Shown: positions 4,818 through 45,900 of the stretch, piece after piece | Numbering within the stretch: position 1 is the stretch's first letter | Layout: each line of letters opens with the position of its first letter | From: Ostreococcus lucimarinus | Taxonomy: Eukaryota | DNA: 64,000 bases | Strand: one strand, 5' to 3' | Assembly: GCA_000092065.1 (NCBI GenBank) | Contig: CP000597.1 | Made by a program: the position numbers and the translations under genes | The notes under the pieces: model-generated | The model's database searches: none | The model's input: only the letters and a program-made list of their open reading frames with translations | Told to the model about the DNA's origin: nothing

Positions 4818-4955
4818 GGGCCGCGCCACCGTTTTGTAACCGCGCGCGGTCGTCGGTACGGCTGAAGTTTGTCGCGAGCGCGACGACCTCTTCCATGCAA
4901 ACGCACGACGATGGTATAGCGAGAAGGGCGGTGATTGCGAGGACGACGAGCGCGC

Positions 4956-13275: not shown

Positions 13276-16200
13276 ATGGAGTACGTCGACGCGTCAACGC
13301 TGCGAAAACTGTCGACGTCGGGTGACATCATCATCGTCGACGCGAGCTGGGCGATCGCGAACGACGTCGAGCGCGCGCGCGCGGCGCACGAGAGCGAGCG
13401 CATCCCGAACGCGACGTTTTATGATCACGACGAGGTGTGCGACCTGTCGTCGCCGCTGCCGCAGGCGTTCCCGCCGCGGGAAGCGTTCGCGCGAGGCGTC
13501 GGCGGCGGACTCGGGGCGACGAAGACGCGAGACGTGGCGATATACGCGAAAAACGGCGCGTCTTGCGCGGCGGAGGCGTGTGCGTTCGCGTTCTTGGAAT
13601 ATGGACATCGAGGACGGGTGATGGTGCTCAAGGGAGGGATGGAGGCGTGGAAGGCGGAAGGCTACGAGACGGAGGTCGGGGCGGAGACGATGCGCGAGCG
13701 GGCGACGGTGGAGTACGACGAAGACGGATCGAACGGAACGCGCGAGGGGAAGAAATCGGGATTCGTCGACGCGAAAGATTTGTTGACGAACTTGAGCACG
13801 CAGCGGTTGCAAGTGCTGGATTGCCGACAGTCGGAGGTGTTCGCGGGAGGGGCGAGAGACGCGGCGTACGTTCGGATTCAGGATCGAGCGATTCAGTTCG
13901 AGGGCTTCCGCGAAGGGCACATTCCGGGGGCGAAGAATTTACCGTACACGCGGTTGTTCGACGTCGCGGACGAAAACTTGCGAGAAATATTCGAGGGCGC
14001 GGGGTTGGACCTGTCCATGCCCGTGGCCGTGGTCGGTTCGGGGGGCGTCGACGCGGCGCCGATGGTGGCGTCAGCGCTCACGCGCGCCGGGTGCGCCGAC
14101 GCCGTGGTGCTAAAGAACGGTATGTGTGCGTGGTGCACGGCGCAAGGGAGCTCGTATCCGATGTCCATCGCTAGCACTTCTCCGCACGCTTCGCACAACG
14201 AAAAGCGCCTGATCGTTTGGGCGGTGACTCGATCGCGCGGCACCGCGCTCGAACGCTCGTTCTCTATGCACTCCGAGGCGATGGTCATGCACGAGTTACT
14301 CACGGAGCCGTGCTTGAAGGAGAATAATCCGGAAAATTACGCCAAGATTGTCAGTGGACAATCTGAACATCATGTCGCGAGCAGTGGATGCAGCTATGCG
14401 ACGATGTTAGAGGTGATGACGGCGGATTACTCCGCGCAAGGACGTCCATTCTTCTTCTCCAAAGAGCTGTCGTGTTACTTTGACTTGAAGCAAATGAAGT
14501 CGAGCTGGTTAAAACGGTTCACGCACGTGGTGTTGATTCGACAACCGACGGAAACGATAGAGTCATTTTATCGCGTCTCCATTGAACACAAGGAAGGGAG
14601 CTGCTATTATGATCCATCTGAGGCTGGATTTGCGGAAGCTTTTGGTATCGTAAACGCGTTGAAGCGTATCAATGCCAAGGTTATGGTCGTCGACGCTGAC
14701 GCGGATTTGCTGTCGCGACCAGAGGAGACGCTCCAAGAGATGTGTTCGCTGGCAAACGTGAACTTTGAGAGTTCGATGTTGTCATGGAAGCCCGCAGAGT
14801 TGTCAACGTGGATCAAATTTCGCGGTTGGCACGACGATGCGGCGAGATCGAGCGAGTTCAAAGCTGTCGACAAGGCACCGATGCAAAACGTACCGCCGGA
14901 ACTCTGCGTCGATGCGGCGAAGCAACAACCGTATTACGACGCCATAGGGTGGGAGCGCAAAGAAACTTCCAAGCGTTGGCCGTTCTTACGCCAGCTCACG
15001 AATCCGACGCATCGGTTCTCCGTCGTCGTGTGCGCATCGGATGAAGGCGCTATGGATATGTTCCCTCGTCTTGCCGCCGCGCGTCTGAGCGGCGTCAACT
15101 TGTACGAGTTCAAGCCGAGCGAAGTTGATCAGGCGATGAATAAATGCCCGTATATTTTCGACGACCCGATCGTTCTAGTGGGCGCACACGGACCCACGCT
15201 GCACATGGCCGAGGCACTGCGCGAGCGTGCGCAGAAGGACGGAACTTTGTGCATCGTACGCATAGTTCTCGTCGACGCTTCGGCGCATCGCGTTCGACCC
15301 GAAGGATTCGAGCACAGCTGGGTCCCAGAAGATTCGCTCAAGGATCAAACCAGCATGGACGAAGTTTTACAGAGTATTTTAGTCGACATCGAAACGGCAC
15401 AAAGCAAAAGTGCGAAGGAGATGGCGGATGTGAACGCGTTAGCCTCGACGACGACGTCGGCGGCGACGCACTGGCGCTCGGGTTTGGCGACGGCGTTGCA
15501 AGACGCTCGCTCCGACAAACCTTGCGTTACAGATGCGACGAGTACGTACACGATGAAAGAAGTGTACTCGCGTGCGTATCACGTCGCAGATATGCTCACC
15601 GAACGCGGTGCGCTGAACTCTCGTGTGGGTTTGTTTGTGCAAGCCTCCGCGGCGTCGGTGTGGTGCGCCATGGGTTCACTCTTGTGTGAATCTGTGTTTT
15701 GCGAAATCCCCGCGTGGTATCGCGACACCGACCTCGAACGCGTGTTGCGTTTGAACGAGTCGAAAGTCATAATAACTTCTCGTGATCTCGTGCAGTTCGT
15801 ACCCACCGCGTACAGAGACTTGGTCGTGGTCGTCGAGGACATGGAGTACGACGTCGACTTGAGCGGCGAGCTTCATCCGGCGCTGACGCGTCCTGACACT
15901 CCCGATGCCCCCGGGTTCTCCGTACTCACCAGTGGCACTACTGGTGTGAGTAAAATTCTGTGCTGTCCACAATCCGCGCTGACGGACTCGCAATCGGTCA
16001 TTGGGCCACACATGCGTGGCGACGATGTCATGGGGAGCTTTTGGGTCTATTATTACTTCTTCATTCCGCTCCTCGCTGGTCGCACGCTGAGCGTCATCCC
16101 GAACGATTTCTTCCTCAAGCCCCGAGAGTTGATTTCGTATGTGCGAAGTCAAAAAATGACCATGCTTTACCTCAGTCCGAGTATCCTGGAGAGCTGTTTG

Positions 16201-19200
16201 TTGCACTGCACGCCGCAAGAGTTCTCCGAAGGGATGCAAGACGTGCACACAATTTTATTGACCGGTGAACGCGTGCGAAGAGAGACTCGTATGCTTCTCG
16301 CCGAGCGTCTCACCCGTACGCGTTTGATTGACGTGTACAGCACGAACGAAACGGGTGATTTGGCGATATCTGATTACGGTGGAGCGTTCTTCCTGCGTGA
16401 GGGCACGCAAGCGCGCGTGTTGACGGATGACGGCAAGCCAGCTGTTCGCGGCACCGTCGGCCAGCTTCACGTTAAAAAGAGTGGTTTGCTCGTTGGCTTC
16501 TACACGGATAACGGTTACGCGAAGATCGAAAGCGAGTGGTATCCAACTGGCGATCTCGTTCGTTGGTTAGGTCGCAACAGGTTGACTTTTGAATCTCGTC
16601 AAAAGTCGGCATACGTCAAGATTCGTGGCTTCAAGGTTTCGCCGGTCATGGTACAAGACGTCATGCTCAAGATGCCAGTGATTAAACAGGCCATCGTGAG
16701 CACGATCGGACAGTCTGACATTGACCAGCAACTCGTCGCTGCTATCTCCTTCAACAACGGTGCGCGAGCGAAGGAGAGCGAATTGCGGGCACACATGGCA
16801 GCGCACGTGCCGCACTACATGATTCCGTCGACGTTTTACGACCTCGGCAACAAAGTGTCCACAGCTACCTCTGGTAAAGTGGTCAAGCTTGATGTCGATA
16901 GGCTGGACAAAATCACCGATAGTAACGAAGTGCAACTGACTACAAAGCAAAATGAGGTCGTGGAGGTGTGGCGCCAAGTGTTAGATCAACCGGAGAAGAA
17001 CTTCGCGGCGACGGAGAGCTTTTTCGACTACGGCGGAAGCTTGAAATTTGTTGAGCTTGCGGCGGCACTTTCGAAGAAATGGGGGGTGAGTTTGACGGTT
17101 CCCGAAGTCATCGCCAAGCCGACGCTGGCTGAGATGGCCCTACTTATGGAAGATTATAAAAACGCCAAGTTTGAGCCCGAGGTCGAAGTCGCAAAGTATG
17201 ACTTTTCCGAGTTCAAGCGAGCGCCAAAGAAGAATACTGCGGCGGGCAAGAAGAATATTCTCCTTACCGGCGCTACTGGTTTTCTTGGTGCGTACTTGCT
17301 TCAAGAACTCGCCGCAAGCGATGAAATTGATCAGATTTACGCTATCGTGCGCGCAAAAGACAAGTTTGCGGCGCAAAATCGCGTGCTCGATGTCTTCCGT
17401 AAGCGCGGGCTCACGTTTACCGATCAAATAACGCAAAAGACAACGTTCATGTGTGGTGACATGTCAATGCCGTTGTACGACATACCCGAAGCCACGCTCG
17501 CGCCAGTTTTGGAAGTGATTGACGTTGTCATCAGCGGTGGCGCGGAAGTCAATATGGTGAAGTCTTATTCAGCGTTAGAAAAGGTAAACGTCGGAGGAAC
17601 GTTCAACGGGCTCGAGATCGCGTCGCGCGCCGGCGCTAGACACGTTCTCATTTCCACGCAGTATCCGCTTCCGGGTGAAGTTTCAACGGGATACCGACGA
17701 AGTAAAGAGGTCGCGGAGATGCTATGCGAGCGCGCGCAGAAAGAAGTTGGCGTTGAGTCGGCCGTTTTATTGTTTGGTGACATCGGTATTTCTCGTGCCG
17801 TCGGTTCGCTCGCGCCCGACGATGACTACATCGTCATCTTCCTCCGCGCCTGCCTCGCGACAGGTTTCTTCCCACGTACCGAGTGGGCTGTTAGTATCTT
17901 GTGCGTCGATGATTGCGTGAAGATGCTCACGTCAATCTCATTATCCGGCCAAGTCGATCGTTATGCGTTTGACGGCGTCGCGCGTGAAGTAAAGGGTAAA
18001 CTGATGCCGTTTTCTCAACTTTACGAATGGCTCTCCAAGGAGTACGCGTTGCAGCTGTGCAGCTACGATGGCTGGCTCAATGCAGTTAAGGCTGGCGCCG
18101 CCGAAGGCAACACGATCCTTCAGCGCGCGCTCCTGACGATTGATTCCATGGAAGTCGAACTCAGAGCGGAGGGTGAGCACTTCAACTCGCAGGCGGCGTC
18201 AGATGCGCTCTTCTCCGTGGACGAAGCGTGGGGTAAGAACCTCGTCGGTGCGCTAATTCTCGAACTCTACAGCGAACTTCAAAATGACGACAAAGACACC
18301 ACCATCGGCTTCGCCGCGTTGGCGCAAGGCGAAGATTTGGTTCCGTTCAAGTATCGCCTCCCAGACATGACCCCGACGTCTGTCGAGGTGAAGGTCGAGT
18401 ACTGCGGCTTGTGCGGAAGTGATGATCACTTGATCGTGGGTGACTATGGTGAATATGCGGTGTGGCCGCAAGTTTGCGGACACGAAGTCGTGGGTACGGT
18501 CACCCAAGTTGGCACGGCGGTGACGACGCTAAAAGCCGGTCAACGCGTTGGCGTCGGCTGGCAGAGCTCGTCTTGCCACGATTGCGAGTGGTGCGCGCGA
18601 GGCGATGAGCAGCTGTGCTCTAGTGTCGGTTGTACATGCTGCGAAGGTAACAAAGGTGGTTTCGCCGATCGCATGCGCTTAAACGACTCGCAATTCTGCT
18701 ACAAAATCCCAGACGCGCTGTCTTCCGCGGAAGTCGCGCCGTTGCTATGCGGTGGCCAAACCGTTTGGACGCCTTTGAACGAGCAAACGAAGTCTAGCGA
18801 TCGCGTCGGCATTCTCGGCCTCGGTGGACTCGGTCACATGGCCATCAAGTTCGCCAAGGCGCTCGGTCGAGAAGTCACCGCGATTTCGTCTTCGGCGTCG
18901 AAGCGCGCCGACGCCCTGTCGCACGGCGCGTCGCGCTTTTTGGTGCACACCAACCAAGAAGAGATGGATGCCGCCGCCTCATCGCTCGACTTCATCCTAG
19001 TCACCATCGCCACGAATAAAGAGGTGGACTTCGCGAAGTTTTTCCCCTTGTTACGCCCGCGTGGGACGATTTGTTTCGTCGGCATGTGCCCTCCCATCCA
19101 AGCCGACGTCTTCACTCTCGGCTTCACCATGAACAACATCACAACGAGTAACACCGGGGGCAAAAAGGACATGGTTCAAATGCTCGAATTCTGCGCCCGA

Positions 19201-19374
19201 CACAAGATCGGCGCCTCCGTCGCCGTGAGTCCGCTCAGCGAGATCAACACCGCCATCACGGCTTTGCGCACGGGCGAATCCCACTTCCGACACGTCCTCG
19301 TCAACGACGTCTCGAGCGGTAGTCAACACCGTCGCATGGCCAGCGCCTTCGGCAGCGGCTTCCCTTCCCGTTAA
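13276..19374 (+). CDS. Multidomain megasynthase: rhodanese x2 - sulfotransferase-like - adenylation - carrier - thioester reductase - Zn alcohol dehydrogenase
   Basis: ATG at 13276 and a single 2,032-codon ORF. Rhodanese pair spans about 13276-14150. Sulfotransferase-like PAPS motifs: VTRSRGTAL (about 14220) and VVLIRQPTETIESFYR (about 14527-14575). A-domain cores: TSGTTGVSK (15928-15954), YSTNETGD, YPTGDL, KIRGFKV, SGKVVKLD. Carrier FFDYGGSLKF with Ser codon at 17038-17040. R domain LLTGATGFLGAYL (about 17260) and YRRSK (about 17691). ADH motifs GLCGSDDH (about 18405), CGHEVVG, GLGGLGH (about 18817). Confidence 0.9.
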   Translation: MEYVDASTLRKLSTSGDIIIVDASWAIANDVERARAAHESERIPNATFYDHDEVCDLSSPLPQAFPPREAFARGVGGGLGATKTRDVAIYAKNGASCAAEACAFAFLEYGHRGRVMVLKGGMEAWKAEGYETEVGAETMRERATVEYDEDGSNGTREGKKSGFVDAKDLLTNLSTQRLQVLDCRQSEVFAGGARDAAYVRIQDRAIQFEGFREGHIPGAKNLPYTRLFDVADENLREIFEGAGLDLSMPVAVVGSGGVDAAPMVASALTRAGCADAVVLKNGMCAWCTAQGSSYPMSIASTSPHASHNEKRLIVWAVTRSRGTALERSFSMHSEAMVMHELLTEPCLKENNPENYAKIVSGQSEHHVASSGCSYATMLEVMTADYSAQGRPFFFSKELSCYFDLKQMKSSWLKRFTHVVLIRQPTETIESFYRVSIEHKEGSCYYDPSEAGFAEAFGIVNALKRINAKVMVVDADADLLSRPEETLQEMCSLANVNFESSMLSWKPAELSTWIKFRGWHDDAARSSEFKAVDKAPMQNVPPELCVDAAKQQPYYDAIGWERKETSKRWPFLRQLTNPTHRFSVVVCASDEGAMDMFPRLAAARLSGVNLYEFKPSEVDQAMNKCPYIFDDPIVLVGAHGPTLHMAEALRERAQKDGTLCIVRIVLVDASAHRVRPEGFEHSWVPEDSLKDQTSMDEVLQSILVDIETAQSKSAKEMADVNALASTTTSAATHWRSGLATALQDARSDKPCVTDATSTYTMKEVYSRAYHVADMLTERGALNSRVGLFVQASAASVWCAMGSLLCESVFCEIPAWYRDTDLERVLRLNESKVIITSRDLVQFVPTAYRDLVVVVEDMEYDVDLSGELHPALTRPDTPDAPGFSVLTSGTTGVSKILCCPQSALTDSQSVIGPHMRGDDVMGSFWVYYYFFIPLLAGRTLSVIPNDFFLKPRELISYVRSQKMTMLYLSPSILESCLLHCTPQEFSEGMQDVHTILLTGERVRRETRMLLAERLTRTRLIDVYSTNETGDLAISDYGGAFFLREGTQARVLTDDGKPAVRGTVGQLHVKKSGLLVGFYTDNGYAKIESEWYPTGDLVRWLGRNRLTFESRQKSAYVKIRGFKVSPVMVQDVMLKMPVIKQAIVSTIGQSDIDQQLVAAISFNNGARAKESELRAHMAAHVPHYMIPSTFYDLGNKVSTATSGKVVKLDVDRLDKITDSNEVQLTTKQNEVVEVWRQVLDQPEKNFAATESFFDYGGSLKFVELAAALSKKWGVSLTVPEVIAKPTLAEMALLMEDYKNAKFEPEVEVAKYDFSEFKRAPKKNTAAGKKNILLTGATGFLGAYLLQELAASDEIDQIYAIVRAKDKFAAQNRVLDVFRKRGLTFTDQITQKTTFMCGDMSMPLYDIPEATLAPVLEVIDVVISGGAEVNMVKSYSALEKVNVGGTFNGLEIASRAGARHVLISTQYPLPGEVSTGYRRSKEVAEMLCERAQKEVGVESAVLLFGDIGISRAVGSLAPDDDYIVIFLRACLATGFFPRTEWAVSILCVDDCVKMLTSISLSGQVDRYAFDGVAREVKGKLMPFSQLYEWLSKEYALQLCSYDGWLNAVKAGAAEGNTILQRALLTIDSMEVELRAEGEHFNSQAASDALFSVDEAWGKNLVGALILELYSELQNDDKDTTIGFAALAQGEDLVPFKYRLPDMTPTSVEVKVEYCGLCGSDDHLIVGDYGEYAVWPQVCGHEVVGTVTQVGTAVTTLKAGQRVGVGWQSSSCHDCEWCARGDEQLCSSVGCTCCEGNKGGFADRMRLNDSQFCYKIPDALSSAEVAPLLCGGQTVWTPLNEQTKSSDRVGILGLGGLGHMAIKFAKALGREVTAISSSASKRADALSHGASRFLVHTNQEEMDAAASSLDFILVTIATNKEVDFAKFFPLLRPRGTICFVGMCPPIQADVFTLGFTMNNITTSNTGGKKDMVQMLEFCARHKIGASVAVSPLSEINTAITALRTGESHFRHVLVNDVSSGSQHRRMASAFGSGFPSR

Positions 19375-19527
19375 ATCGCGTCATCATCGCACACGTTATT
19401 AATCCACACCTATCGCAGCCCATCGCCGCCGCCCTCCGTCGCGAACGCGTCCCGCTGGAAAATCTCCGGCTGCACTCCACAACCGATCGCGCACCTCACA
19501 TCGCGCCTCGCGCGCGCGTTCGCCGCG

Positions 19528-21192
19528 ATGGCGCCCGAGGACGCGCACGCAAACGACCATTCCGCCGCACGTTCGCAATCTGCCGAACGCGCCCGCGCGC
19601 CCGCGAACGCCGCACCCAAACGCACGAAAAGCAACAAAGGACTGAAGCTGATCAACAAACTCGCGCGAGACGCCGTGGACGACGCCGCCGGTGCGCTCAC
19701 GCGCGGGTTCAGCTTCACCAAACAACGGATTACTAAGCAAATGAAGCGCCTGAACGTCGGACGGGCGAGTCGGCGCACGAAACAAATGCGAAGACTGTGG
19801 ACAAAGGTGCACCGCGGCAACCGGTTGGGGACGGCGGACGGCGACGTGCTGACGAATCATCTCGGATTGTGCCTCCAGTTGGCGTTCACGGCGCAAAGTA
19901 GGGGTGCAAGTGGTGACGCTAGCGGTGGTGGTGAGGCGGCGGAGGAAACGGTGAAGCGGGAAGTGTATGCGGTGAAGAAGATGGAGATGGCGAACGGGGA
20001 GCTGCTGCCGAATTTCTCGTACACGGTGGAGGCGCCGAAGAAGTTCGAGGAGTTGAGGTTGTTGTGGGGAATGGATGCGCACTCGTACAGGAGTGCGTTC
20101 GCGATTCCGGATGTAAGGACGGTTTGTGATGACGTACAGACTCAGAACGGCGAGATCCGCGGGAACATGCGCACGGAAACTGGGAAGTTGGAGGCGACGT
20201 CGACGTCGTTGCGGGTGATTTCGCAGGCGCTCGCGAGCGGCAAGTCGAGGAGTTGGTTCTTTTGTAGCGAAGACGGCACACTGCTGGTGAAGACGTGCAA
20301 CGTAGCGGAAAAACGGACGCTACTGAAAATGTTGCCTGAATACACTGAGTACGTGAGAGAAAACAGCACGGTGAGCATGCTGCCGCAATTTTATGGATTG
20401 TACACGATTAAATTCAACGGCACGCGGCCGTTGTCCTTCATCGTAATGAATTATTGGTTCGCGTCGACGAAAATCATTCAGAAGAGGTTTGATCTCAAAG
20501 GTAGCACGTTCGGTCGGCGCGCAAGCGCGCGCGAGCTCGCCAAGGGCTCGGTGTGTATTTATAAAGACAACGATTTTCGCGAGGAGGACGCCGTGCACAC
20601 GCGACATTCGCAAAATATTTGCGACGTATTGAAGAAGGACAGCGAGTTTCTTGCCAAGAGAAATCTCATAGACTATTCACTAGTATTCGGCGAGTACCAA
20701 GCGGTGACGCCAACAGATATTTTCGAGGCTAACAAGGCGTTTGAAGAGTTTGAGACGGATCATGCGGATTGGAAGGACCAGCGCGCCGCCGCCGTCGCCG
20801 TCGCCGAATCCGACGAAGGCAAGAGCGACACGAATAGCTTGGCGGACAGCGATGCCGTATCCGAAAAAAGCGAAGAGTTCTTGATGTTGGAAAAAGCCTC
20901 GATGTTCACTCCATTCTTGCACGACGTCGCGCGCTTGAACCAGTTGCGCATGGTGAACAAACCCAAGGGCGCGGTGTTTTGCGGCATCATCGACATCTTG
21001 ACTGAGTGGGGACCGAGGAAGAAGTTGGAGCGATTTTTCACCAGCCAAATTTGCTGCGGTCGGGACGTTTCGTGTCAACGACCCGATGTCTACGCGAAGC
21101 GATTCAGCGCTTTCATGAATCAGAATGTCTTCCTCCCCGCGATTGAGCGCGCAACTGCAGACGACGTCGGGTTCACGCTCGCGGAGCGCTGA
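19528..21192 (+). CDS. PIP5K: Phosphatidylinositol phosphate kinase (PIP5K-type catalytic core)
   Basis: ATG at 19528. PIPK core motifs: GKSRSWFFCSEDGTLLVKT, LLKMLPEYTEYV, MLPQFYGLYTIKF, FIVMNY, FDLKGSTFGRRAS, LIDYSLV, GIIDILTEWGPRKKLE. Confidence 0.85.
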   Translation: MAPEDAHANDHSAARSQSAERARAPANAAPKRTKSNKGLKLINKLARDAVDDAAGALTRGFSFTKQRITKQMKRLNVGRASRRTKQMRRLWTKVHRGNRLGTADGDVLTNHLGLCLQLAFTAQSRGASGDASGGGEAAEETVKREVYAVKKMEMANGELLPNFSYTVEAPKKFEELRLLWGMDAHSYRSAFAIPDVRTVCDDVQTQNGEIRGNMRTETGKLEATSTSLRVISQALASGKSRSWFFCSEDGTLLVKTCNVAEKRTLLKMLPEYTEYVRENSTVSMLPQFYGLYTIKFNGTRPLSFIVMNYWFASTKIIQKRFDLKGSTFGRRASARELAKGSVCIYKDNDFREEDAVHTRHSQNICDVLKKDSEFLAKRNLIDYSLVFGEYQAVTPTDIFEANKAFEEFETDHADWKDQRAAAVAVAESDEGKSDTNSLADSDAVSEKSEEFLMLEKASMFTPFLHDVARLNQLRMVNKPKGAVFCGIIDILTEWGPRKKLERFFTSQICCGRDVSCQRPDVYAKRFSAFMNQNVFLPAIERATADDVGFTLAER

Positions 21193-23946: not shown

Positions 23947-24275
23947 GAGGCGCGGTCGAGCGCGTCGCGGTCGCGTCGACGCGTGCGCGCGTCGCGGTGC
24001 GCGGCGACGGCGACGCGCGCGCGCGCGACGCGACGGGGCGATGCGCGGGGTCCTACAGGCAAACAGTGAGAATGCAAATACGAGTCCAGTGGGCTTCGTA
24101 GAGTAATGATGGTGCGAACTCGAGATATAGATACACGGTGTTTGACTTTGATGGTATACGTGTCGAATGTCCGGTAACGTGTGTTTATGTTATCGCGCGC
24201 GCGCGCGACGACGCGCGCCGTCGGCGCGGTAAATCGCGACGCTCGGCGCGCGACGACGGACGACGGACGACGGCG

Positions 24276-24302
24276 ATGTCGATCACCGCGCTCACGAACA
24301 CG
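24276..24302 (+). CDS. Putative 27-nt first exon (MSITALTNT) of the organellar uL15 gene
   Basis: The uL15 ORF at 24589 has no ATG and begins right after an AG. ATG at 24276 followed by donor ACG|GTACGC at 24303 joins in phase 0 to 24589. ACTGAC branch motif lies at 24556-24561, 28 nt before the acceptor. Confidence 0.45.
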
Positions 24303-24588
24303 GTACGCATCGATTCGCGCGACGCGGCGAGCGAACGGCGCGCGCGTCGCGACGCGCGGACGCGACGCCGCGCGACGTCGCGCGTTACCCTAGGGCTTCG
24401 CGACGACGCGATGACGACGGCGCGCGGCGCGGACGCGGCGCGCGGAAGGGCGGCGCGGGACGCGCGCGCGGCGGGAAAAATTATTGCGGACGCGGCGACG
24501 GGCGATGGGCGACGGCGACGGCGAATCGAGGACGCGCGAGAGGCTGGAACGCACGACTGACGACTGAGGGTACGGCGACGCGACGCAG

Positions 24589-24803
24589 GTGTCCGCGCTC
24601 TCGTTGAGCTCGCGTGGGAACGCTCGCGGGACGTTCCGGGTGCGCGCGGTGCGACCGACGAAGAGTTTCTCTTCGGCGGTCGTCGCGTCGGATGATGAAC
24701 GATTGCGATTGCACAACTTGAGCCCGCTCAAGGGGTCGCGTCGCGAGAAGAAGCGCATCGGTCGCGGTTACGGCGCGGGTCAAGGTGGCTCTTGCGGCGA
24801 CGG
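24589..24803 (+). CDS. Organellar ribosomal protein uL15, middle exon
   Basis: Transit-like S/R/A-rich sequence followed by the uL15 signature [29 protein letters not shown]. Donor G|GTAAGT with GT at 24804-24805. Confidence 0.8.
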
Positions 24804-25006
24804 GTAAGTGGTTTTTTTGTTTTTGTGCGCGCGCTGAATCGCGCGCGCGACCTCGTTCGGACATCGCGAGACAACAGTGGATTGTTTTTGCGTGCGCGAC
24901 CTGTCGGGCAAACGCGGAACATCGCGGGACAACTGTGGTTTTTTTGTGCGCGCGACCTCGTCCTGACATCGCGAGACTGACGTACGCCCAAAATCCGGGA
25001 ACTTAG
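24804..25006 (+). other. Spliceosomal intron (203 nt, GT-AG, phase 2) composed of three degenerate internal tandem repeats
   Basis: Removing 24804-25006 joins GG|C to give ...GDG-MRGQRARSG..., matching the bacterial uL15 spacing GRG.KGQK.RSG exactly. ACTGAC at 24976-24981. Repeat units start at 24808, 24878 and 24936, each GTGG(T/A)TT.TTTG..GTGCGCGCGACCT...ACATCGCG.GAC. Confidence 0.8.
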
Positions 25007-25433
25007 CATGCGCGGTCAACGCGCAAGGAGCGGCCCTGGCGTGCGCCCCGGCTTTGAGGGCGGGCAAACACCCATGTACCGCCGCTTCCCCAAACTCAAG
25101 GGCATCGCCGGCGGCATGGGCGCCGGCAAACCGAAGTTTGTCACTGTGAACGTCGGCGACCTCGAGGCGGCCGTCCAAGCGAAGAAACTCGACGCGAGCG
25201 CCGAGATCACGATCGAAGCGCTCAAGAGCGCCGGCGTGATCAAAGCGACTGGCTACTACAGAAACTTGCCGTTGAAGGTTTTGGGTGAGGGCGAGGTGTC
25301 GGGCTTGAAGGTGAAGGCGGCCTCCTTTTCTCAAAGCGCCTCGGAGAAGCTCACCGCGGCTGGCGGTGCGGCGGAAGTTTTGCCGGCGAAGGAAAAGTGG
25401 AGTCGTCAGGCTGCCGCCGCGGCCAAGGCGTAA
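25007..25433 (+). CDS. Organellar ribosomal protein uL15, last exon
   Basis: MRGQRARSGPGVRPGFEGGQTPMYRRFPKLKG matches the conserved uL15 core (KGQ.ARSG...GFEGGQ.P..RR.PK). Stop at 25431-25433. Confidence 0.85.
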
Positions 25434-25537
25434 ACGTCTTCGTACGTTTCGTCGAGGTCGAACAATCATTCATCCTGTAGAACTGAGTCGGGCTTAACCC
25501 GCGCGCATTCAATTACAACAACCTAAAAATATCTCAA

Positions 25538-26068
25538 CTACCGACCGTCCAAAACGCTCGCGTCCACGCCGTCGAGGTTCATCTTATTGCGCACCGCCTG
25601 CGCGGGCACGCCCATCTTCAGCATCTTGAAGTAAATGGAGTACTTCGGATCGCTCGCGCGCGCGTTCGTCTCCGGCGTCGCCGCCGTCGCCGCCTCCGCC
25701 GTCGCCGCCTCCGCCGTCGCCGTCGCCGCCGTCGCCGCCGCCGCCGTCGCCGTCGCCGCCTCCGCCGTCGCCGCGTCCGCCGCGTCCGCCGCGTCCGCGC
25801 CCCGACCGTCGTCCTCGCGCGTCGCCGCCTCCGCCGTCGTCGTCGTCGTCGTCGCCGTCCCCGCCTCGAGCGCGCGCTCCAACAGCGCCGTCCTCGCCTC
25901 CGCCTCTCGCAGCGCGCGCGCCGCCGCGCCCAGCTTCGCCTCCGCGCTCGCGCACAGCGCGTCGAGCGTCGTCGCCGTCCGCGCCGCCCGCGCGTTCAGC
26001 GCGCTCGCCATCGCCTGGTCGTTCGCCGCGGGCAAGCGCGCGCGAAGTCTCGCCAGCGCGTCGCCCAT
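25538..26068 (-). CDS. WASHC3: WASH complex subunit 3 (CCDC53)-like protein
   Basis: ATG at 26068 (first ATG not overlapping the divergent neighbour). N-terminal coiled coil LDALCASAEAKLGAAARALREAEARTALLERAL resembles the CCDC53 helix (C.EEKL...R...E..L..L..KL). C-terminal DPKYSIYFKMLKMGVPAQAVRNKMNLDGVDASVL resembles human DPRYARYLKMVQVGVPVMAIRNKMISEGLDPDLL. Ala/Thr low-complexity linker. Confidence 0.5.
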   Translation of the reverse strand: MGDALARLRARLPAANDQAMASALNARAARTATTLDALCASAEAKLGAAARALREAEARTALLERALEAGTATTTTTTAEAATREDDGRGADAADAADAATAEAATATAAAATAATATAEAATAEAATAATPETNARASDPKYSIYFKMLKMGVPAQAVRNKMNLDGVDASVLDGR

Positions 26069-36950: not shown

Positions 36951-39900
36951 ATGCGGCTCGACGACGGCGACGACGCGCGACGAAGGGACGCGCGCGCGGT
37001 TCGAGCGCGCGCGACGCGGACGCCGACGCGCGCGGCGACCACGCGCGGCGATGTCGTCGACGCCGCTGCCGCCGATGATGACATCGACGACGACGCCGTC
37101 GCGCGACCGGACGCGACGCGACGACGACGACGCGACGACGACGCGACGACGACGACGCGCGATGATGAGACGACGCGCGCGCGAGAGGGCGCGAGCGGAC
37201 GCCGGCGAGCGCGGGAACGAGGGAGAGCGACGAGGCGTCGTCGACGGCTCGGGACGGCGGCGGCGGCGGCGGCGACGGCGGCGTTGGCGGCGACGGTCGA
37301 GCGCGTCGGCGTGGACGCGTCGACGGCGCTCACGAAGGGGGTGGCGAGGAATGGTTTCGTGTCGTCGAGCGGGTATAAGTACTATAAGGTGAATGTGGCG
37401 TGCGTGGAGGCGGCGCAGCCGCTGACGTTGGAGCTGACGACGAGCAACGGGGACGCGAACTTGTACGTGTCTCGATCGGCGCAGCCGACGACTTCGTCGT
37501 ACGAACAGCGGAGCGTGAACGTTGGAAATGCGTTGGATTCGGTGACGATCACGAGTCCGGTGAATGGGTACTATTACGTGAGCGTGTACGGCGCGCTGTC
37601 CAGCACGTACAAGCTTCGAGCGCTCACGACGATGTTTACCGGGAAACATCCGTGCACGGGATTTCGAATCACCGATAGCGACGTCTCGAGCGTTGGCTCG
37701 GGATCTGGAAATCAGTTCATACTGCAAGAAGCGCTCACCGCGAGCGCGGCGGCGGGATTCACCGCGGATGTGTCCGTCGACGGCGACGTCATCCTCGGCG
37801 ACGCGTACACCGATTCGGTGACGGCGAAAGGAGAGCTCAAGCTCGGCGTGACGGACAGTACGTACTACGCCATCACGCGACAATCGCCGAGCGCACCGAG
37901 CAGCAACCCGGGCGGCGCTTTGTCGATCGTCGGCGCGAACGCGACCTATCAGGGGGGATCGGTAAAGATTCTCGGCGGAACGGGCGGTTCGGGGGCGGGC
38001 GGCGACGTCGTGATCGAGGCGGGGTCGGCGTCTGGCGGCAACGGTGGCGATTTGAAGTTACGTGGCGGCACGTCGAACTCAGGAACGGGCGGCGACGTCG
38101 TCATAGATGCCGGAGATAGCACGACACAAGCATCTTCGTACGAGGGCATCATTCACATAGGTCCAACTTCTGCGTCGTTTGTGCGCGTCGGCGAGAGTTC
38201 AAATAAGCAAGTTCAAACCGATATTTTCGGCGACTTGACGGTGCACGGAAATCTCTTGACAACGAATGATGTGGTGTACGCGAACAGCTACACGAGTTAC
38301 GTGCAGGTTTCAACCTCTCAAGACGGCATGTTTCATCAAGAAGTGCGCGCGCCAAAGATTACAGGTCTGGACGCGGAGGACATCACGGGCACTCCAACGA
38401 GCACGTTGACTTTAGACGCTGGCATGCGAGGGAGTCAGCAACACGTCGTGATCGCTCCGAGCGAGGCAACGGCGGTTTACATAGGTAGCAGCACATCCAC
38501 GATTCCGGTCTCGATAAGGCAAGGCGCGAACGCAGGAGACGTGCGAGTGCACGCTGATGGCAGCGGCGCGCTGTCCGTGACTTCGGCCGCAGGGCAGGAC
38601 CTGACGCTCGCGTCCGGCGACGACGTGGTGGTGACCACCGCGGCGAGTAAGACGCTCGCGCTGAAGCAGGACTCGACGAGCATTTTGAGCTGGGACGCGG
38701 CCGGCGCTGTGACTGTGAACTCCGTGAGCGGGCAGGACCTGACGCTGAGCACGGGCGGTAGCGCGGCCGTGACTGTGGACTCGACCGGGCAGGTGGGCAT
38801 CGGGACGACGACGCCGGGGAAGACGCTGGACGTCACCGGGACGGCGCGCGTGAGTGGCGCGACGACGCTGAGTAGCACGCTTGACGTGACTGGCGCTACG
38901 ACGCTCGCATCCGTGGGCGTGACCGGTGCGGCCACCGTCGGCGGGACTTTAGGTGTGACTGGCGCTACGACGCTCGCATCCGTGGGCGTGACCGGCGCGG
39001 CCACCGTCGGCGGGACTTTAGGTGTGACTGGCGCTACGACGCTCGCATCCGTGGGCGTGACCGGCGCGGCCACCGTCGGCACGACGCTCGGCGTGACTGG
39101 CGCTACGACGCTCACCGGCGACGTGACGATGAGCAACGACTTGACCGTGAGCGGTGCGCTTACTGTGACATCTGATGCCGCTGTGAGTTTGACCTCTGCA
39201 AGTGGTTCGGACGTGAGCTTGACGAGCGCCGGTACGGGTGGCATCGTGTTGACGTCGACGGACGACATCACGCTCGATGCTGCCGATGATGTGACGATCG
39301 ATGCCGCCGGTGCTTTGTCTTTGGAGCAGGGCGGGACGAGTATTTTGAGCTGGACCGACACCGGCGCTGTGACTTTGAACTCCTTAGGCGGGCAGACCCT
39401 GAGCGTGTCGAGCCTCAGCTCGGCCGGGAACGCGGGCGCCGTGAGCGTGTCCGGCGGCACGACGACTGGGACGTCCTCGAACACCGGCGGCGACTTGACG
39501 CTGCAATCTGGCGGCGCGCCCGCTGGCAGCGTGAACGGTGACGTTCTGGTGGACTCGGCCACTGGTCTAGGCACCGCCGGCTCGATCACGCTTCGCCAGG
39601 GGGTGGGCGGTGAGCGTGTTTCTGTGGACGCGAACGGCGCCGTGAGTCTGGACACGCACTCCGGGCAGGACCTGACGCTGAGCACGGGCGGTAGCGCGGC
39701 CGTGACTGTGGACTCGACCGGGCAGGTGGGCATCGGGACGACGACGCCGGGGAAGACGCTGGACGTCACCGGGACGGCGCGCGTGAGTGGCGCGACGACG
39801 CTGAGTAGCACGCTTGGCGTGACTGGCGCTACGACGCTCGCATCCGTGGGCGTGACCGGTGCGGCCACCGTCGGCGGGACTTTAGGTGTGACTGGCGCTA

Positions 39901-42900
39901 CGACGCTCGCATCCGTGGGCGTGACCGGCGCGGCCACCGTCGGCACGACGCTCGGCGTGACTGGCGCTACGACGCTCACCGGCGACGTGACGATGAGCAA
40001 CGACTTGACCGTGAGCGGTGCGCTTACTGTGACATCTGATGCCGCTGTGAGTTTGACCTCTGCAAGTGGTTCGGACGTGAGCTTGACGAGCGCCGGTACG
40101 GGTGGCATCGTGTTGACGTCGACGGACGACATCACGCTCGATGCTGCCGATGATGTGACGATCGATGCCGCCGGTGCTTTGTCTTTGGAGCAGGGCGGGA
40201 CGAGTATTTTGAGCTGGACCGACACCGGCGCTGTGACTTTGAACTCCTTAGGCGGGCAGACCCTGAGCGTGTCGAGCCTCAGCTCGGCCGGGAACGCGGG
40301 CGCCGTGAGCGTGTCCGGCGGCACGACGACTGGGACGTCCTCGAACACCGGCGGCGACTTGACGCTGCAATCTGGCGGCGCGCCCGCTGGCAGCGTGAAC
40401 GGTGACGTTCTGGTGGACTCGGCCACTGGTCTAGGCACCGCCGGCTCGATCACGCTTCGCCAGGGGGTGGGCGGTGAGCGTGTTTCTGTGGACGCGAACG
40501 GCGCCGTGAGTCTGGACACGCACTCCGGGCAGGACCTGACGCTGAGCACGGGCGGTAGCGCGGCCGTGACTGTGGACTCGACCGGGCAGGTGGGCATCGG
40601 GACGACGACGCCGGGGAAGACGCTGGACGTCACCGGGACGGCGCGCGTGAGTGGCGCGACGACGCTGAGTAGCACGCTTGGCGTGACTGGCGCTACGACG
40701 CTCGCATCCGTGGGCGTGACCGGTGCGGCCACCGTCGGCGGGACTTTAGGTGTGACTGGCGCTACGACGCTCGGCGGGACTTTAGGTGTGACTGGCGCTA
40801 CGACGCTCGCATCCGTGGGCGTGACCGGCGCGGCCACCGTCGGCACGACGCTTGGCGTGACTGGCGCTACGACGCTCGGCGGGACTTTAGGTGTGACTGG
40901 CGCTACGACGCTCGCATCCGTGGGCGTGACCGGCGCGGCCACCGTCGGCACGACGCTCGGCGTGACTGGCGCTACGACGCTCGCATCTGTGGGCGTGACC
41001 GGTGCGGCCACCGTCGGCGGGACTTTAGGTGTGACTGGCGCTACGACGCTCACCGGCGACGTGACGATGAGCAACGACTTGACCGTGAGCGGTGCGCTTA
41101 CTGTGACATCTGATGCCGCTGTGAGTTTGACCTCTGCAAGTGGTTCGGACGTGAGCTTGACGAGCGCCGGTACGGGTGGCATCGTGTTGACGTCGACGGA
41201 CGACATCACGCTCGATGCTGCCGATGATGTGACGATCGATGCCGCCGGTGCTTTGTCTTTGGAGCAGGGCGGGACGAGTATTTTGAGCTGGACCGACACC
41301 GGCGCTGTGACTTTGAACTCCTTAGGCGGGCAGACCCTGAGCGTGTCGAGCCTCAGCTCGGCCGGGAACGCGGGCGCCGTGAGCGTGTCCGGCGGCACGA
41401 CGACTGGGACGTCCTCGAACACCGGCGGCGACTTGACGCTGCAATCTGGCGGCGCGCCCGCTGGCAGCGTGAACGGTGACGTTCTGGTGGACTCGGCCAC
41501 TGGTCTAGGCACCGCCGGCTCGATCACGCTTCGCCAGGGGGTGGGCGGTGAGCGTGTTTCTGTGGACGCGAACGGCGCCGTGAGTCTGGACACGCACTCC
41601 GGGCAGGACCTGACGCTGAGCACGGGCGGTAGCGCGGCCGTGACTGTGGACTCGACCGGGCAGGTGGGCATCGGGACGACGACGCCGGGGAAGACGCTGG
41701 ACGTCACCGGGACGGCGCGCGTGAGTGGCGCGACGACGCTGAGTAGCACGCTTGGCGTGACTGGCGCTACGACGCTCGCATCCGTGGGCGTGACCGGTGC
41801 GGCCACCGTCGGCGGGACTTTAGGTGTGACTGGCGCTACGACGCTCGGCGGGACTTTAGGTGTGACTGGCGCTACGACGCTCGCATCCGTGGGCGTGACC
41901 GGTGCGGCCACCGTCGGCGGGACTTTAGGTGTGACTGGCGCTACGACGCTCGGCACGACGCTCGGCGTGACTGGCGCTACGACGCTCGCATCCGTGGGCG
42001 TGACCGGCGCGGCCACCGTCGGCACGACGCTCGGCGTGACTGGCGCTACGACGCTCACCGGCGACGTGACGATGAGCAACGACTTGACCGTGAGCGGTGC
42101 GCTTACTGTGACATCTGATGCCGCTGTGAGTTTGACCTCTGCAAGTGGTTCGGACGTGAGCTTGACGAGCGCCGGTACGGGTGGCATCGTGTTGACGTCG
42201 ACGGACGACATCACGCTCGATGCTGCCGATGATGTGACGATCGATGCCGCCGGTGCTTTGTCTTTGGAGCAGGGCGGGACGAGTATTTTGAGCTGGACCG
42301 ACACCGGCGCTGTGACTTTGAACTCCTTAGGCGGGCAGACCCTGAGCGTGTCGAGCCTCAGCTCGGCCGGGAACGCGGGCGCCGTGAGCGTGTCCGGCGG
42401 CACGACGACTGGGACGTCCTCGAACACCGGCGGCGACTTGACGCTGCAATCTGGCGGCGCGCCCGCTGGCAGCGTGAACGGTGACGTTCTGGTGGACTCG
42501 GCCACTGGTCTAGGCACCGCCGGCTCGATCACGCTTCGCCAGGGGGTGGGCGGTGAGCGTGTTTCTGTGGACGCGAACGGCGCCGTGAGTCTGGACACGC
42601 ACTCCGGGCAGGACCTGACGCTGAGCACGGGCGGTAGCGCGGCCGTGACTGTGGACTCGACCGGGCAGGTGGGCATCGGGACGACGACGCCGGGGAAGAC
42701 GCTGGACGTCACCGGGACGGCGCGCGTGAGTGGCGCGACGACGCTGAGTAGCACGCTTGGCGTGACTGGCGCTACGACGCTCGGCGGGACTTTAGGTGTG
42801 ACTGGCGCTACGACGCTCGCATCCGTGGGCGTGACCGGCGCGGCCACCGTCGGCACGACGCTCGGCGTGACTGGCGCTACGACGCTCGCATCCGTGGGCG

Positions 42901-45900
42901 TGACCGGCGCGGCCACCGTCGGCACGACGCTCGGCGTGACTGGCGCTACGACGCTCACCGGCGACGTGACGATGAGCAACGACTTGACCGTGAGCGGTGC
43001 GCTTACTGTGACATCTGATGCCGCTGTGAGTTTGACCTCTGCAAGTGGTTCGGACGTGAGCTTGACGAGCGCCGGTACGGGTGGCATCGTGTTGACGTCG
43101 ACGGACGACATCACGCTCGATGCTGCCGATGATGTGACGATCGATGCCGCCGGTGCTTTGTCTTTGGAGCAGGGCGGGACGAGTATTTTGAGCTGGACCG
43201 ACACCGGCGCTGTGACTTTGAACTCCTTAGGCGGGCAGACCCTGAGCGTGTCGAGCCTCAGCTCGGCCGGGAACGCGGGCGCCGTGAGCGTGTCCGGCGG
43301 CACGACGACTGGGACGTCCTCGAACACCGGCGGCGACTTGACGCTGCAATCTGGCGGCGCGCCCGCTGGCAGCGTGAACGGTGACGTTCTGGTGGACTCG
43401 GCCACTGGTCTAGGCACCGCCGGCTCGATCACGCTTCGCCAGGGGGTGGGCGGTGAGCGTGTTTCTGTGGACGCGAACGGCGCCGTGAGTCTGGACACGC
43501 ACTCCGGGCAGGACCTGACGCTGAGCACGGGCGGTAGCGCGGCCGTGACTGTGGACTCGACCGGGCAGGTGGGCATCGGGACGACGACGCCGGGGAAGAC
43601 GCTGGACGTCACCGGGACGGCGCGCGTGAGTGGCGCGACGACGCTGAGTAGCACGCTTGGCGTGACTGGCGCTACGACGCTCGCATCCGTGGGCGTGACC
43701 GGTGCGGCCACCGTCGGCGGGACTTTAGGTGTGACTGGCGCTACGACGCTCGCATCCGTGGGCGTGACCGGCGCGGCCACCGTCGGCACGACGCTCGGCG
43801 TGACTGGCGCTACGACGCTCGCATCCGTGGGCGTGACCGGCGCGGCCACCGTCGGCACGACGCTTGGCGTGACTGGCGCTACGACGCTCGGCGGGACTTT
43901 AGGTGTGACTGGCGCTACGACGCTCGCATCCGTGGGCGTGACCGGCGCGGCCACCGTCGGCACGACGCTCGGCGTGACTGGCGCTACGACGCTCGCATCT
44001 GTGGGCGTGACCGGTGCGGCCACCGTCGGCGGGACTTTAGGTGTGACTGGCGCTACGACGCTCACCGGCGACGTGACGATGAGCAACGACTTGACCGTGA
44101 GCGGTGCGCTTACTGTGACATCTGATGCCGCTGTGAGTTTGACCTCTGCAAGTGGTTCGGACGTGAGCTTGACGAGCGCCGGTACGGGTGGCATCGTGTT
44201 GACGTCGACGGACGACATCACGCTCGATGCTGCCGATGATGTGACGATCGATGCCGCCGGTGCTTTGTCTTTGGAGCAGGGCGGGACGAGTATTTTGAGC
44301 TGGACCGACACCGGCGCTGTGACTTTGAACTCCTTAGGCGGGCAGACCCTGAGCGTGTCGAGCCTCAGCTCGGCCGGGAACGCGGGCGCCGTGAGCGTGT
44401 CCGGCGGCACGACGACTGGGACGTCCTCGAACACCGGCGGCGACTTGACGCTGCAATCTGGCGGCGCGCCCGCTGGCAGCGTGAACGGTGACGTTCTGGT
44501 GGACTCGGCCACTGGTCTAGGCACCGCCGGCTCGATCACGCTTCGCCAGGGGGTGGGCGGTGAGCGTGTTTCTGTGGACGCGAACGGCGCCGTGAGTCTG
44601 GACACGCACTCCGGGCAGGACCTGACGCTGAGCACGGGCGGTAGCGCGGCCGTGACTGTGGACTCGACCGGGCAGGTGGGCATCGGGACGACGACGCCGG
44701 GGAAGACGCTGGACGTCACCGGGACGGCGCGCGTGAGTGGCGCGACGACGCTGAGTAGCACGCTTGACGTGACTGGCGTTACGACGCTCGCATCCGTGGG
44801 CGTGACCGGTGCGGCCACCGTCGGCACGACGCTCGGCGTGACTGGCGCTACGACGCTCGCATCCGTGGGCGTGACCGGTGCGGCCACCGTCGGCGGGACT
44901 TTAGGTGTGACTGGCGCTACGACGCTCGGCACGACGCTCGGCGTGACTGGCGCTACGACGCTCGCATCCGTGGGCGTGACCGGCGCGGCCACCGTCGGCA
45001 CGACGCTCGGCGTGACTGGCGCTACGACGCTCACCGGCGACGTGAGCGTCGGGACTTCCTCGGCTTTGAGTTTTGGTTCTGCAACCCGGCAGATGATCAA
45101 CTTATATGGAACAAACAACGCCATCGGCGTGCAATCGTCCACGATGTATTTTCGTAGTGCTTATAACTTTGCCTTTTTTGAAGGCGGCGTGTACACCAAC
45201 ACAGAGCTCGATCCGGGTTCGGGTGGCACTTTGCGCATGATGATTCAGAAAACCACGGGCAACGTCGGTATCGGGACGGCGAGTCCAGATTATGAACTCG
45301 ACGTGGTAGGCGATATCAACTTTTCTGGGAATCTCTATCAGGGTGGTTCGCTGTTTGCCTCCCCCTGGACGGAGAGCAGCGGTAACGTGTATCGCAGTAG
45401 CGGTAACGTCGGCATCGGGCTGACGAATCCGACCTACAATCTGCACGTTGCTGGAACGGGGCGCGTTAGTACGACGCTATCGGTGGGTCAAGATTTAACC
45501 ATCGACACGGCTGGCGACTTGAACTTTGCGGCGACGCATCGTCAGATGATCAACCTCCGCGTCGGCGCCGAGGGTTTCGGGATCGGGACGCAGATGGACA
45601 CGACGTACTTTCGCTCTCCGGGCCACTTTGCGTTCTACGAAGACGGAACGCACAGCACCACTGACTTGGACGCGAACGGTGGCACCGCGCGTCTGGTGAT
45701 CAGGAGCGGCGGGAAGGTGGGCATCGGGCGGACGAATCCGAGCTATGATCTCGACGTGGTAGGCGATATCAACTTTTCTGGGAATCTCTATCAGGGCGGT
45801 TCTCTGTTCCCGTCCCCCTCCCCCTGGACGGAGAGCGGCAGTAACGTGTATCGTAGTAGCGGTAACGTCGGCATCGGGCTGACGAATCCGAGCTACAAAC

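Follow-up and report, generated by a model that had tools for sequence, protein, structure and literature searches.

A three-unit tandem array inside intron 2 of the plastid ribosomal protein uL15 gene of Ostreococcus lucimarinus

The genome of Ostreococcus is among the most streamlined of eukaryotic genomes. Introner elements (IEs) of Micromonas, a member of the same order, were reportedly described by Worden in 2009, and introners are said to have been interpreted by Huff in 2016 as non-autonomous DNA transposons. Introner elements are defined by the presence of many similar introns per genome, and among the Mamiellophyceae such repeat introns are unique to Micromonas, where they do not occur in ribosomal protein genes (Verhelst 2013, PMC3879977). 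The IEs of Micromonas carry a complement to the 5' splice site tens of nucleotides downstream of it (Simmons 2015, PMC4540971). In the scheme of Gozashti 2022 (PMC9860276), an introner family needs at least four introns that are similar to both ends, by a route other than paralogy or microsatellites, and similarity stemming from microsatellites inside introns is filtered out; many introner families, though not all, show target site duplications (TSDs) of 3-9 bp and terminal inverted repeats (TIRs) of at least 6 nt. Ostreococcus introners were not the subject of any title or abstract matched in our literature search.

Here we examine the second intron of the uL15 gene in a 64-kb stretch of O. 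lucimarinus DNA, referred to below as the window. An initial annotation had noted that this intron is built of three degenerate repeat units and had proposed that it either belongs to a family of introners of apparently recent origin, as in Micromonas, or arose by local duplication. Our analysis indicates that intron 2 is very probably a regular, already annotated U2-type spliceosomal intron with a minisatellite-like interior. The repeat itself is ordinary, and the presence and absence of the intron among relatives is a mildly interesting by-product.

The uL15 gene and the array inside intron 2

The gene is nuclear and encodes a plastid ribosomal protein, a bacterial-type uL15. On the plus strand of the window, exon 1 (24276..24302) encodes MSITALTNT and is followed by intron 1 (24303..24588; 286 nt, GTACGC...CAG), by exon 2 (24589..24803), which encodes the transit peptide and the N-terminus of mature uL15 and ends ...GGSCGDG, by intron 2 (24804..25006; 203 nt, canonical GT-AG, phase 2), and by exon 3 (25007..25433), which begins C|ATG CGC GGT... 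and includes the stop codon. Translation of the spliced coding sequence (24276-24302 + 24589-24803 + 25007-25433) is exactly XP_001422103.1, the 'plastid ribosomal protein L15' of Ostreococcus lucimarinus CCE9901. This three-exon, two-intron model is the sole GT-AG solution that reproduces a database protein exactly, and it confirms the 203-nt GT-AG intron at 24804-25006 of the initial annotation. Intron 2 begins GTAAGT, ends CTTAG and splits the Gly codon GG|C in the motif ...GGSCGDG|MRGQ...; its retention would lead to a stop codon at once (GGG TAA). A nearly identical, transcript-derived MMETSP protein (P0177) is uninterrupted over the exon 2/exon 3 junction.

As in canonical introns of the Mamiellophyceae, GT-AG removal of intron 2 restores a conserved protein, and a (N)CTGAC motif, extended to GACTGACG, lies near the 3' end. 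Ostreococcus introns have GACTGACG as their canonical extended branch point (PMC3879977). In intron 2 it is read from the sequence at 24975..24982 on the plus strand, which would place the putative branch A at 24980, 26 nt from a 3' splice site that is TAG and not CAG. Intron 2 is also a singleton within the 64-kb window, intron 1 of the same gene included: the two introns of uL15 show no similarity to each other (z = 0.0).

The interior of intron 2 consists of three degenerate head-to-tail units followed by a 24-nt unique tail, all given here on the plus strand. Unit 1 (24808..24877) comprises a T-run and GTGCGCGCG[CTGAATCGCGCGC]GCGACCTCGTTCGGACATCGCGAGAC and has a degenerate, branch-like end, AACAG. 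Unit 2 (24878..24935) reads GTGGATTGTTTTTGCGTGCGCGACCT(C)GTCGGG[CAAACGCGGA]ACATCGCGGGACAACTG, and unit 3 (24936..24982), which has the intact predicted branch site, reads GTGGTTTTTTTGTGCGCGCGACCTCGTCCTGACATCGCGAGACTGACG. The unique 3' tail (24983..25006), TACGCCCAAAATCCGGGAACTTAG, carries the 3' splice site. Three significant matches to a unit profile, and no others in the window, were obtained with nhmmer at 24808-24876 (E = 9e-13), 24877-24934 (E = 7.5e-11) and 24935-24982 (E = 6e-12), E-values that are partly circular in that the profile was made from these same units. The initial annotation's picture of three degenerate units filling most of the intron is upheld by this profile, with unit starts within 1 nt, and by the shuffles described below.

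Gapped pairwise identity is 93% between units 1 and 3 (46 nt), 89% between units 2 and 3 (45 nt) and 85% between units 1 and 2 (54 nt). The units are set apart by indels of 11-22 nt: unit 1 has an extra 22 nt of its own (GCGCGC-CTGAATC-GCGCGC), and unit 2 an extra ~11 nt (GCAAACGCGGA). The gap-free consensus offered earlier for the three units is only approximate on account of these indels. Intact ACTGAC (24976-24981) is found only in unit 3, units 1 and 2 ending in GACAACAG and GACAACTG, so the observation that the last unit supplies this motif was correct, and the ends of the other units are degenerate.

A repeat search of intron 2 returned a 30-nt block at 28/30 identity (24843-24872 = 24948-24977) and a 36-nt block with 83% identical copies at a spacing of 58 nt. 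The best off-diagonal self-match of the intron, 28/30 at offset 105, has a score of 26; in 500 dinucleotide-preserving shuffles the score had a mean of 8.9 (sd 1.4, max 17), and 0/500 reached 26. Adjacent head-to-tail units are thus more alike than by chance, which is one mark of tandem duplication. Tandem Repeats Finder, run on 24000-26000 even at a score of 30, missed the array of intron 2, whose units are separated by indels too large for it. Over the 64-kb window the same program gave 107 rows, a count in which overlapping rows for the same array are included, at dozens of sites. The window abounds in tandem arrays (periods of 12-70 nt), among them the GC-rich internal tandem repeats of uL15 intron 1 (arrays at 24318-24382 and 24427-24471).

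There is next to no chance, in our estimation, that the units merely look alike by coincidence in low-complexity, CG-rich sequence or that the array is an artefact of assembly. Such a reading could appeal to a genome that is 62% G+C with many CGCG runs and to the silence of Tandem Repeats Finder on the array. Neither accounts for a self-match score that no dinucleotide-preserving shuffle attained, and the same three units are present in 15 independent metagenome contigs, which shows that the array is not an assembly artefact.

Intron 2 in populations and relatives of O. lucimarinus

Contigs of the O. lucimarinus population (L021-L030, L081, L093, L099, L100 and L137) are ~99-100% identical to the window and contain intron 2 at 203-206 nt; the presence of intron 1 in this population is read from the window. 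All three units are found in each of the 16 O. lucimarinus alleles (8 distinct), with variation limited to the length of the poly-T tract, a few SNPs and one 1-nt indel. Unit 2 of the window has a private 1-nt deletion relative to 15/15 environmental alleles. A further, partial member of the population (L014) is a contig that begins inside intron 2. No within-species copy-number polymorphism of the units was seen among the 16 alleles, and with its unit number so constant the array does not behave as a minisatellite that is actively unstable.

Relatives were taken as contigs encoding uL15 homologues found by protein search, and gene order (PIP5K, ubiquilin, uL15, CCDC53, zf-Nse, Na/sulfate symporter) is kept throughout them. 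In an uncultured lineage (L155-L159 and L013) that is collinear with the window at 89-92% identity over ~13 kb, intron 1 is present and intron 2 is absent to the base. For L155-L159 the collinearity includes intron 1 and intergenic DNA and breaks exactly at 24803|25007, and L013 likewise is without the exact 203 nt of intron 2. The filled site reads GGCGACGG|GTAAGT...ACTTAG|CATGCG and the empty site GGCGACGG|AATGCG. Intron 1 is also present and intron 2 absent in a lineage ~82% identical to the window (L019/L020). Exon 2 of this lineage is 94-98% and its exon 3 80% identical, but both flanks are ~82%, and its interpretation as a recombinant or chimera was rejected.

Most of the remaining relatives align with the window in coding sequence only. 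In one such lineage (L015-L018, 71-88%), intron 1 is absent and intron 2 is present at the identical nucleotide and phase, with a length of 149 nt. Both introns are absent, leaving a single ORF, from L007-L012 and from the O. tauri-like L160. Intron 2 is absent from the Bathycoccus-like contigs (L001-L006, 50% G+C) and from Micromonas-like proteins, assigned from sequence only and compared at the protein level, whose ORFs are continuous over the intron 2 site. Basal Ostreococcus contigs (L163-L168, the lineage of MMETSP protein P0155) have intron 1 and, near the intron 2 site, a different intron of 167 nt that lies 4 nt downstream, in phase 0 after ATG; no homology of this intron to that of O. 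lucimarinus or of L015 was detected (z = 0.6 and 1.4, respectively). The distant Chlamydomonas incerta and Chlorella sorokiniana have no intron at the intron 2 site. Their intron lies 20 nt upstream of it, after GAGQ and in phase 0, and the idea of an ancient conserved intron position was discarded for this reason. In the comparison of orthologues in relatives that had been proposed at the outset, intron 2 is absent from L155-L159/L013 and shorter in L015-L018. Intron 2 is polymorphic for presence and absence at a novel position among close relatives, as introners are, a pattern also shown by ordinary introns that were lost.

The introns of O. lucimarinus and L015 are homologous. Their local alignment scored 24.5 against 10.2 ± 1.7 for shuffles (z = 8.5, 0/300), and when the trimmed intron of O. 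lucimarinus was run with nhmmer against the loci of seven relatives, it matched only the L015 intron, exactly placed (E = 3e-6). Unit 1 of the L015 intron has a CTGAATCG insert, as does unit 1 of O. lucimarinus; its unit 2 is without a T-rich head, has a ACGCGGAAC insert as in unit 2 of O. lucimarinus, and ends in a predicted working branch site, AATGACTGACGA. Alignment revealed no counterpart of unit 3 in the L015 intron. The L015 tail, CAAAAATTTCGGACACTCAG, resembles the O. lucimarinus tail, CCAAAATCCGGGAACTTAG, by eye, and the semi-global alignment left the two tails unpaired. Since the inserts of units 1 and 2 are common to both lineages, these two units appear to be older than the split between them. 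Unit 3 is without either insert, and its core is 28/30 identical to that of unit 1, compared with 22/30 for the orthologous unit 1 cores of the two lineages (the latter counted by hand). This identity, together with the lack of a counterpart in L015, suggests that unit 3 is a later local copy. Unit number also differs at orthologous loci, with approximately two units in L015-L018 versus three in O. lucimarinus, a second mark of tandem duplication. A homologous, shorter orthologue and an identity between units 1 and 3 that exceeds the identity between orthologues support local duplication. Of the two origins considered in the initial annotation, this is the one that held; the introner family did not, no second copy having been found in the 64-kb window or among the listed metagenome matches of Ostreococcus type.

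From this anatomy we infer that the interior of the intron was lengthened by stepwise local tandem duplication of a segment that begins with the T-rich tract and ends in the region of the branch site, by replication slippage or by unequal exchange between short repeats. Units 1 and 2 would have been in place before O. lucimarinus split from the distant Ostreococcus lineage. Unit 3 would be a later copy of ~44 nt of the unit 1 core, inserted just ahead of the branch point; it is flanked by ...GACAACTG and ACGTAC..., and its position coincides with an ACTG microhomology. The last unit alone would retain an intact GACTGACG, the upstream copies being degenerate and probably inert. The units may then be neutral, minisatellite-like filler, and growth of the array would be due to local tandem duplication and not to insertion of a foreign element. 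Derivation of the intron from a duplicated flanking exon was also considered and rejected, as the ends of the intron are unlike the neighbouring exons.

The two introns of uL15 are distributed differently. Intron 1 occurs in O. lucimarinus, L157, L019 and L164 and is missing from L015, L007 and the O. tauri-like contig; intron 2 occurs in O. lucimarinus and L015 and is missing from L157/L013, L019, L007 and the O. tauri-like contig. Because intron 2 is present in the distant L015 and missing from the ~90% identical L157, the simplest reading is that an old intron was lost. Differential loss from a two-intron ancestor likewise predicts that introns 1 and 2 should be patchy in different ways. 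The patchy distribution is best explained by differential precise loss and not by recent mobile insertion. An ancestral intron 2 would have been lost precisely several times, probably by cDNA-mediated conversion. The recent origin suggested by the initial annotation is in keeping with the absence of intron 2 from the closest relative, but the homologue at the same site in a distant lineage favours loss.

An ancestral intron 2 requires at least three independent exact losses, and the differential-loss model does not account for the intron at +4 nt in the basal L163-L168. The choice between loss and gain rests on the homology of the two introns and on a weakly resolved single-gene tree. In the neighbour-joining tree, O. 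lucimarinus groups with L013/L157 at 71% with L019 included; support for this group is 71-95% depending on the taxon set, the 95% coming from a run with a mis-framed L019. Placement of L015 has at most 53% support, and the deeper nodes of the tree are poorly resolved.

Further copies and alternative origins

Neither the intron nor its unit has a second copy in the 64-kb window, ~0.5% of the O. lucimarinus genome, as judged by blastn, self-blast and the nhmmer unit profile. The BLASTN count of copies that had been proposed for the whole genome thus has an answer for the window, where intron and unit are unique. The best outside blastn match (19523-19633, minus strand, 66% over 112 nt) beat mononucleotide shuffles; it falls in the N-terminal PIP5K coding region, on the other strand, and was dismissed as compositional. 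A blastn match at 6423-6480 lies in an intergenic CG-rich tract, and a marginal nhmmer match (4869-4909, E = 0.015) also falls between genes; both were set aside.

A scan of metagenomes, which required the exact 17-base core GCGCGACCTCNNNNNGACATCG, gave at least 120 matches. Among the matches listed, five were of Ostreococcus type, and 5/5 were this uL15 intron, each with the two units that match; the remaining 115 listed were lone chance matches in unrelated contigs, with flanks unlike the unit. Other genomic copies with this core would be expected to be sampled as often as the uL15 copies, so the listed matches argue against their existence. A scan of viral contigs with the core pattern returned four chance matches in phage coding sequence, which were discarded. 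As far as tested, by the 64-kb window and the exact-core metagenome scan, intron 2 is single-copy; given the scope of these searches, an old, diverged, low-copy family may exist.

These results bear on the proposal that uL15 recently received an insertion from a mobile, intron-generating family, of which intron 2 or its 45-70-nt unit would be one copy. We now consider this extremely improbable. The proposal draws on the presence/absence difference between ~90% identical genomes, on a position that is not common to the Chlamydomonas, Chlorella, Bathycoccus or Micromonas-like orthologues, and on the T-rich tract and GACTGAC motif, as noted for Micromonas IEs. The connection by way of Micromonas cannot be maintained, however, as the host is Ostreococcus lucimarinus and intron 2 is unlike the IE-C/ABC-IE sequences (GTGAGTTTATT..TATGGACAATTAGACTGACGTGGTTTTTTT..CAG, Verhelst supplement), with which it has only the generic branch motif GACTGACG in common; Micromonas IEs are, moreover, absent from ribosomal protein genes. 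The structural marks of an introner also fail to appear: the TSD is at most 1 nt, the termini match in inverted orientation over 5 nt (TAAGT/ACTTA), below the 6-nt threshold, and no complement of the 5' splice site follows within tens of nucleotides, the first ~60 nt of intron 2 containing no ACTTAC-like stretch and the sole complement lying at the 3' end. The stability of the predicted RNA fold is not above that of shuffles (z = +0.56). A second copy was not found in 64 kb, all five listed metagenome matches of Ostreococcus type are the uL15 locus itself, and a set of at least four introns similar to both ends was found neither in the window nor among the listed matches. Finally, L015, a lineage that aligns only in coding sequence (71-88%), has a homologous intron at this site, and its presence in so distant a lineage indicates that intron 2 is old. 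It also seems very improbable to us that the GCGCGACCTC...GACATCGCGRGAC blocks are binding sites or structured RNA whose copies are kept by selection, for instance to enhance splicing, for autoregulation, or as a small RNA hosted by the intron. The core is recognisable in both O. lucimarinus and L015, between which intergenic DNA cannot be aligned with blastn, and three units are maintained in 16/16 O. lucimarinus alleles, but the lineages differ in unit number, and the nearest relative and most Ostreococcus lineages do without the intron altogether. Intron 2 has no Rfam match, the same fold prediction gives no advantage over shuffles, and the substitutions between orthologues, judged by eye and uncounted, are mostly CG-to-TG and resemble neutral decay.

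Recurrent gain is a different matter, as it competes with loss for the same distribution. O. lucimarinus, L015 and L164 might have acquired introns independently in the same 4-nt stretch, by reverse splicing and recombination or through an introgressed intron-bearing allele, the intron-less relatives never having had one. Introns of three lineages do lie within 4 nt, that of L164 is unlike the others, and the loss model needs its three or more losses on a single-gene tree. A cluster of differences points in the same direction: the window and the intron-less L157 differ at 9 positions within the first 25 nt of exon 3, compared with ~8-10% elsewhere. We nevertheless regard recurrent gain as unlikely. 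The introns of O. lucimarinus and L015 are homologous and share the identical nucleotide and phase, for which descent is far likelier; intron 1 is equally patchy with a different distribution, as expected from differential loss in intron-poor genomes; and a donor copy was not found. A related suggestion, that the Gly-Met junction of Ostreococcus uL15 is a site of repeated intron turnover with more than one gain within 4 nt, strikes us as decidedly unlikely. Were it true, O. lucimarinus and L015 would have homologous introns at 0 and L164 an unrelated intron at +4, the difference between O. lucimarinus and L157 would be a recent gain or an introgressed allele, the 9 substitutions in 25 nt by the 3' splice site would be its scar, and the unit could be what is left of a low-copy intron-generating element specific to Ostreococcus.

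Precise loss of an old intron whose interior grew by local duplication remains the reading we prefer. On the introner question the result is mainly negative, and a false lead is removed. What the comparison adds is that, of wild Ostreococcus lineages ~90% identical to one another, some have and others lack, to the nucleotide, a 203-nt intron in the gene for a plastid ribosomal protein. The polymorphism of intron 2 provides a clean, PCR-testable marker of Ostreococcus lineages in metagenomes, and the locus would be a small natural case for the study of how introns are precisely lost and how they lengthen by duplicating their own interior.

Comparison with known systems

Intron 2 is like the Micromonas IEs (IE-A/D-IE, IE-C/ABC-IE and E2-IE) in being spliceosomal, in having a lineage-specific position with presence and absence in close relatives, in its T-rich tract and GACTGAC branch motif, and in a host of the order Mamiellales. 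It differs from them in host genus, in predating a deep Ostreococcus split, and in copy number, as the IEs have tens to thousands of copies per genome and here no second was found in the window or among the listed matches. With introners that are DNA transposons it has in common an indel that is exact at the splice boundaries and leaves mRNA length unchanged. Unlike them, intron 2 is without a TSD of 3-9 bp or a TIR of at least 6 nt, and no family of at least four members was found in the window or among the listed matches.

The absence of intron 2 from relatives is similar to cDNA-mediated (reverse-transcriptase) loss in several respects: a close relative lacks exactly the bases of the intron, L157, L013 and L019 keep the 5' intron while missing the one nearest the 3' end, and the two uL15 introns are lost patchily and independently of each other. 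L015, which is without the 5' intron and has kept the 3' one, does not follow this pattern, and the mechanism suggested here is drawn from the distribution of the introns.

The array itself resembles intronic minisatellites, with head-to-tail units of 45-70 nt that contain indels, a unit number that varies between orthologues, a youngest copy that is near-identical to its source, microhomologies at the junctions (ACTG, GTGG) and a surrounding genome rich in similar arrays. It departs from them in that three units are fixed in 16/16 O. lucimarinus alleles, among which it is the poly-T length that varies. As an intron, it differs from canonical introns of Ostreococcus and other Mamiellophyceae in its three-unit interior and in a TAG rather than a CAG 3' splice site. 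It resembles them in its GT-AG ends, a strong GTAAGT 5' site, GACTGACG near the 3' end, a G+C-rich interior, a length in the 100-200 nt class, singleton status within the window and a position that varies between relatives.

Sequence differences in and beside uL15 intron 2

Intron 2 of the plastid uL15 gene in the reference strain reads GACCTGTCGGG at 24899-24900, within its second repeat unit, while all 15 environmental alleles compared, with contigs L021-L030 of the O. lucimarinus population among them, read GACCTCGTCGGG. The cultured strain, or else its assembly, is alone in having this 1-nt deletion.

The start of exon 3, immediately 3' of intron 2, was compared with the sister lineage that lacks this intron. 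Nine mismatches fall within 25 nt (window 25007-25031 against L157 6165-6189), relative to a divergence between the two of ~4% across the 48 nt upstream of this stretch and 8-10% overall. The cluster may represent a complex mutation adjoining the splice site, or it may merely mark a fast-evolving loop. P0177, the MMETSP protein of a relative, is also divergent at the same exon 3 start (QNARAGRSV). We also observed that the O. lucimarinus sequence CGCGCAAGG at this position resembles a rotation of the AAGGCGCGC found in relatives, with the encoded K-A-R becoming R-A-R.

Other introns of uL15

Intron 1 (24303-24588, 286 nt) contains GC-rich tandem repeats and, like intron 2, is patchily distributed across lineages, being found in O. 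lucimarinus, the sister lineage L157/L013, L019 and L164-type loci and missing from the divergent lineage L015, from L007-L012 and from the O. tauri-like L160. The basal Ostreococcus loci L163-L168, the lineage of MMETSP protein P0155, carry a 167-nt phase 0 intron located 4 nt downstream of the O. lucimarinus intron 2 site (about 2793-2959 in L164, for example; GGC ATG/GTACGT...CACAG/AGA GGA). Comparison of the two introns detected no sequence similarity. The 4-nt offset could have arisen by intron sliding or by independent gain.

Tandem repeats and a large ORF elsewhere in the window

Highly repetitive coding sequence probably accounts for the nested tandem-repeat block at 38700-45050 (~6.3 kb). 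Its periods are 36, 69 and 105 nt plus one of ~1 kb, copy identity is as high as 99.8%, and the consensus unit begins GTGACTGGCGCTACGACGCTCGCATCCGTGGGCGTGACCGGCGCGGCC. On the minus strand, an array with a 150-nt period (4956-6250; 6.8 copies, 83%) corresponds to a protein in which RCC1-like repeats (...CWGYNxxGQLGDGTTTxRxTPVLVSGITTATSVSAGG...) precede a transmembrane-like tail. Two perfect tandem duplications at 1782-1995 and 4716-4818, one of 107 nt in 2.0 copies and the other of 37 nt in 2.8 copies (100% identity each), lie in AT-richer, non-coding-looking DNA, and both look very recent.

A single plus-strand ORF of 2032 aa spans 13276-19374. Its product matches rhodanese, sulfotransferase, AMP-binding, PP-binding, NAD-binding (reductase) and zinc-ADH domains, as assigned via near-identical contigs. 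The protein is an NRPS-like megaenzyme of the carboxylate-reductase type, an unusual one given the small size of the genome.
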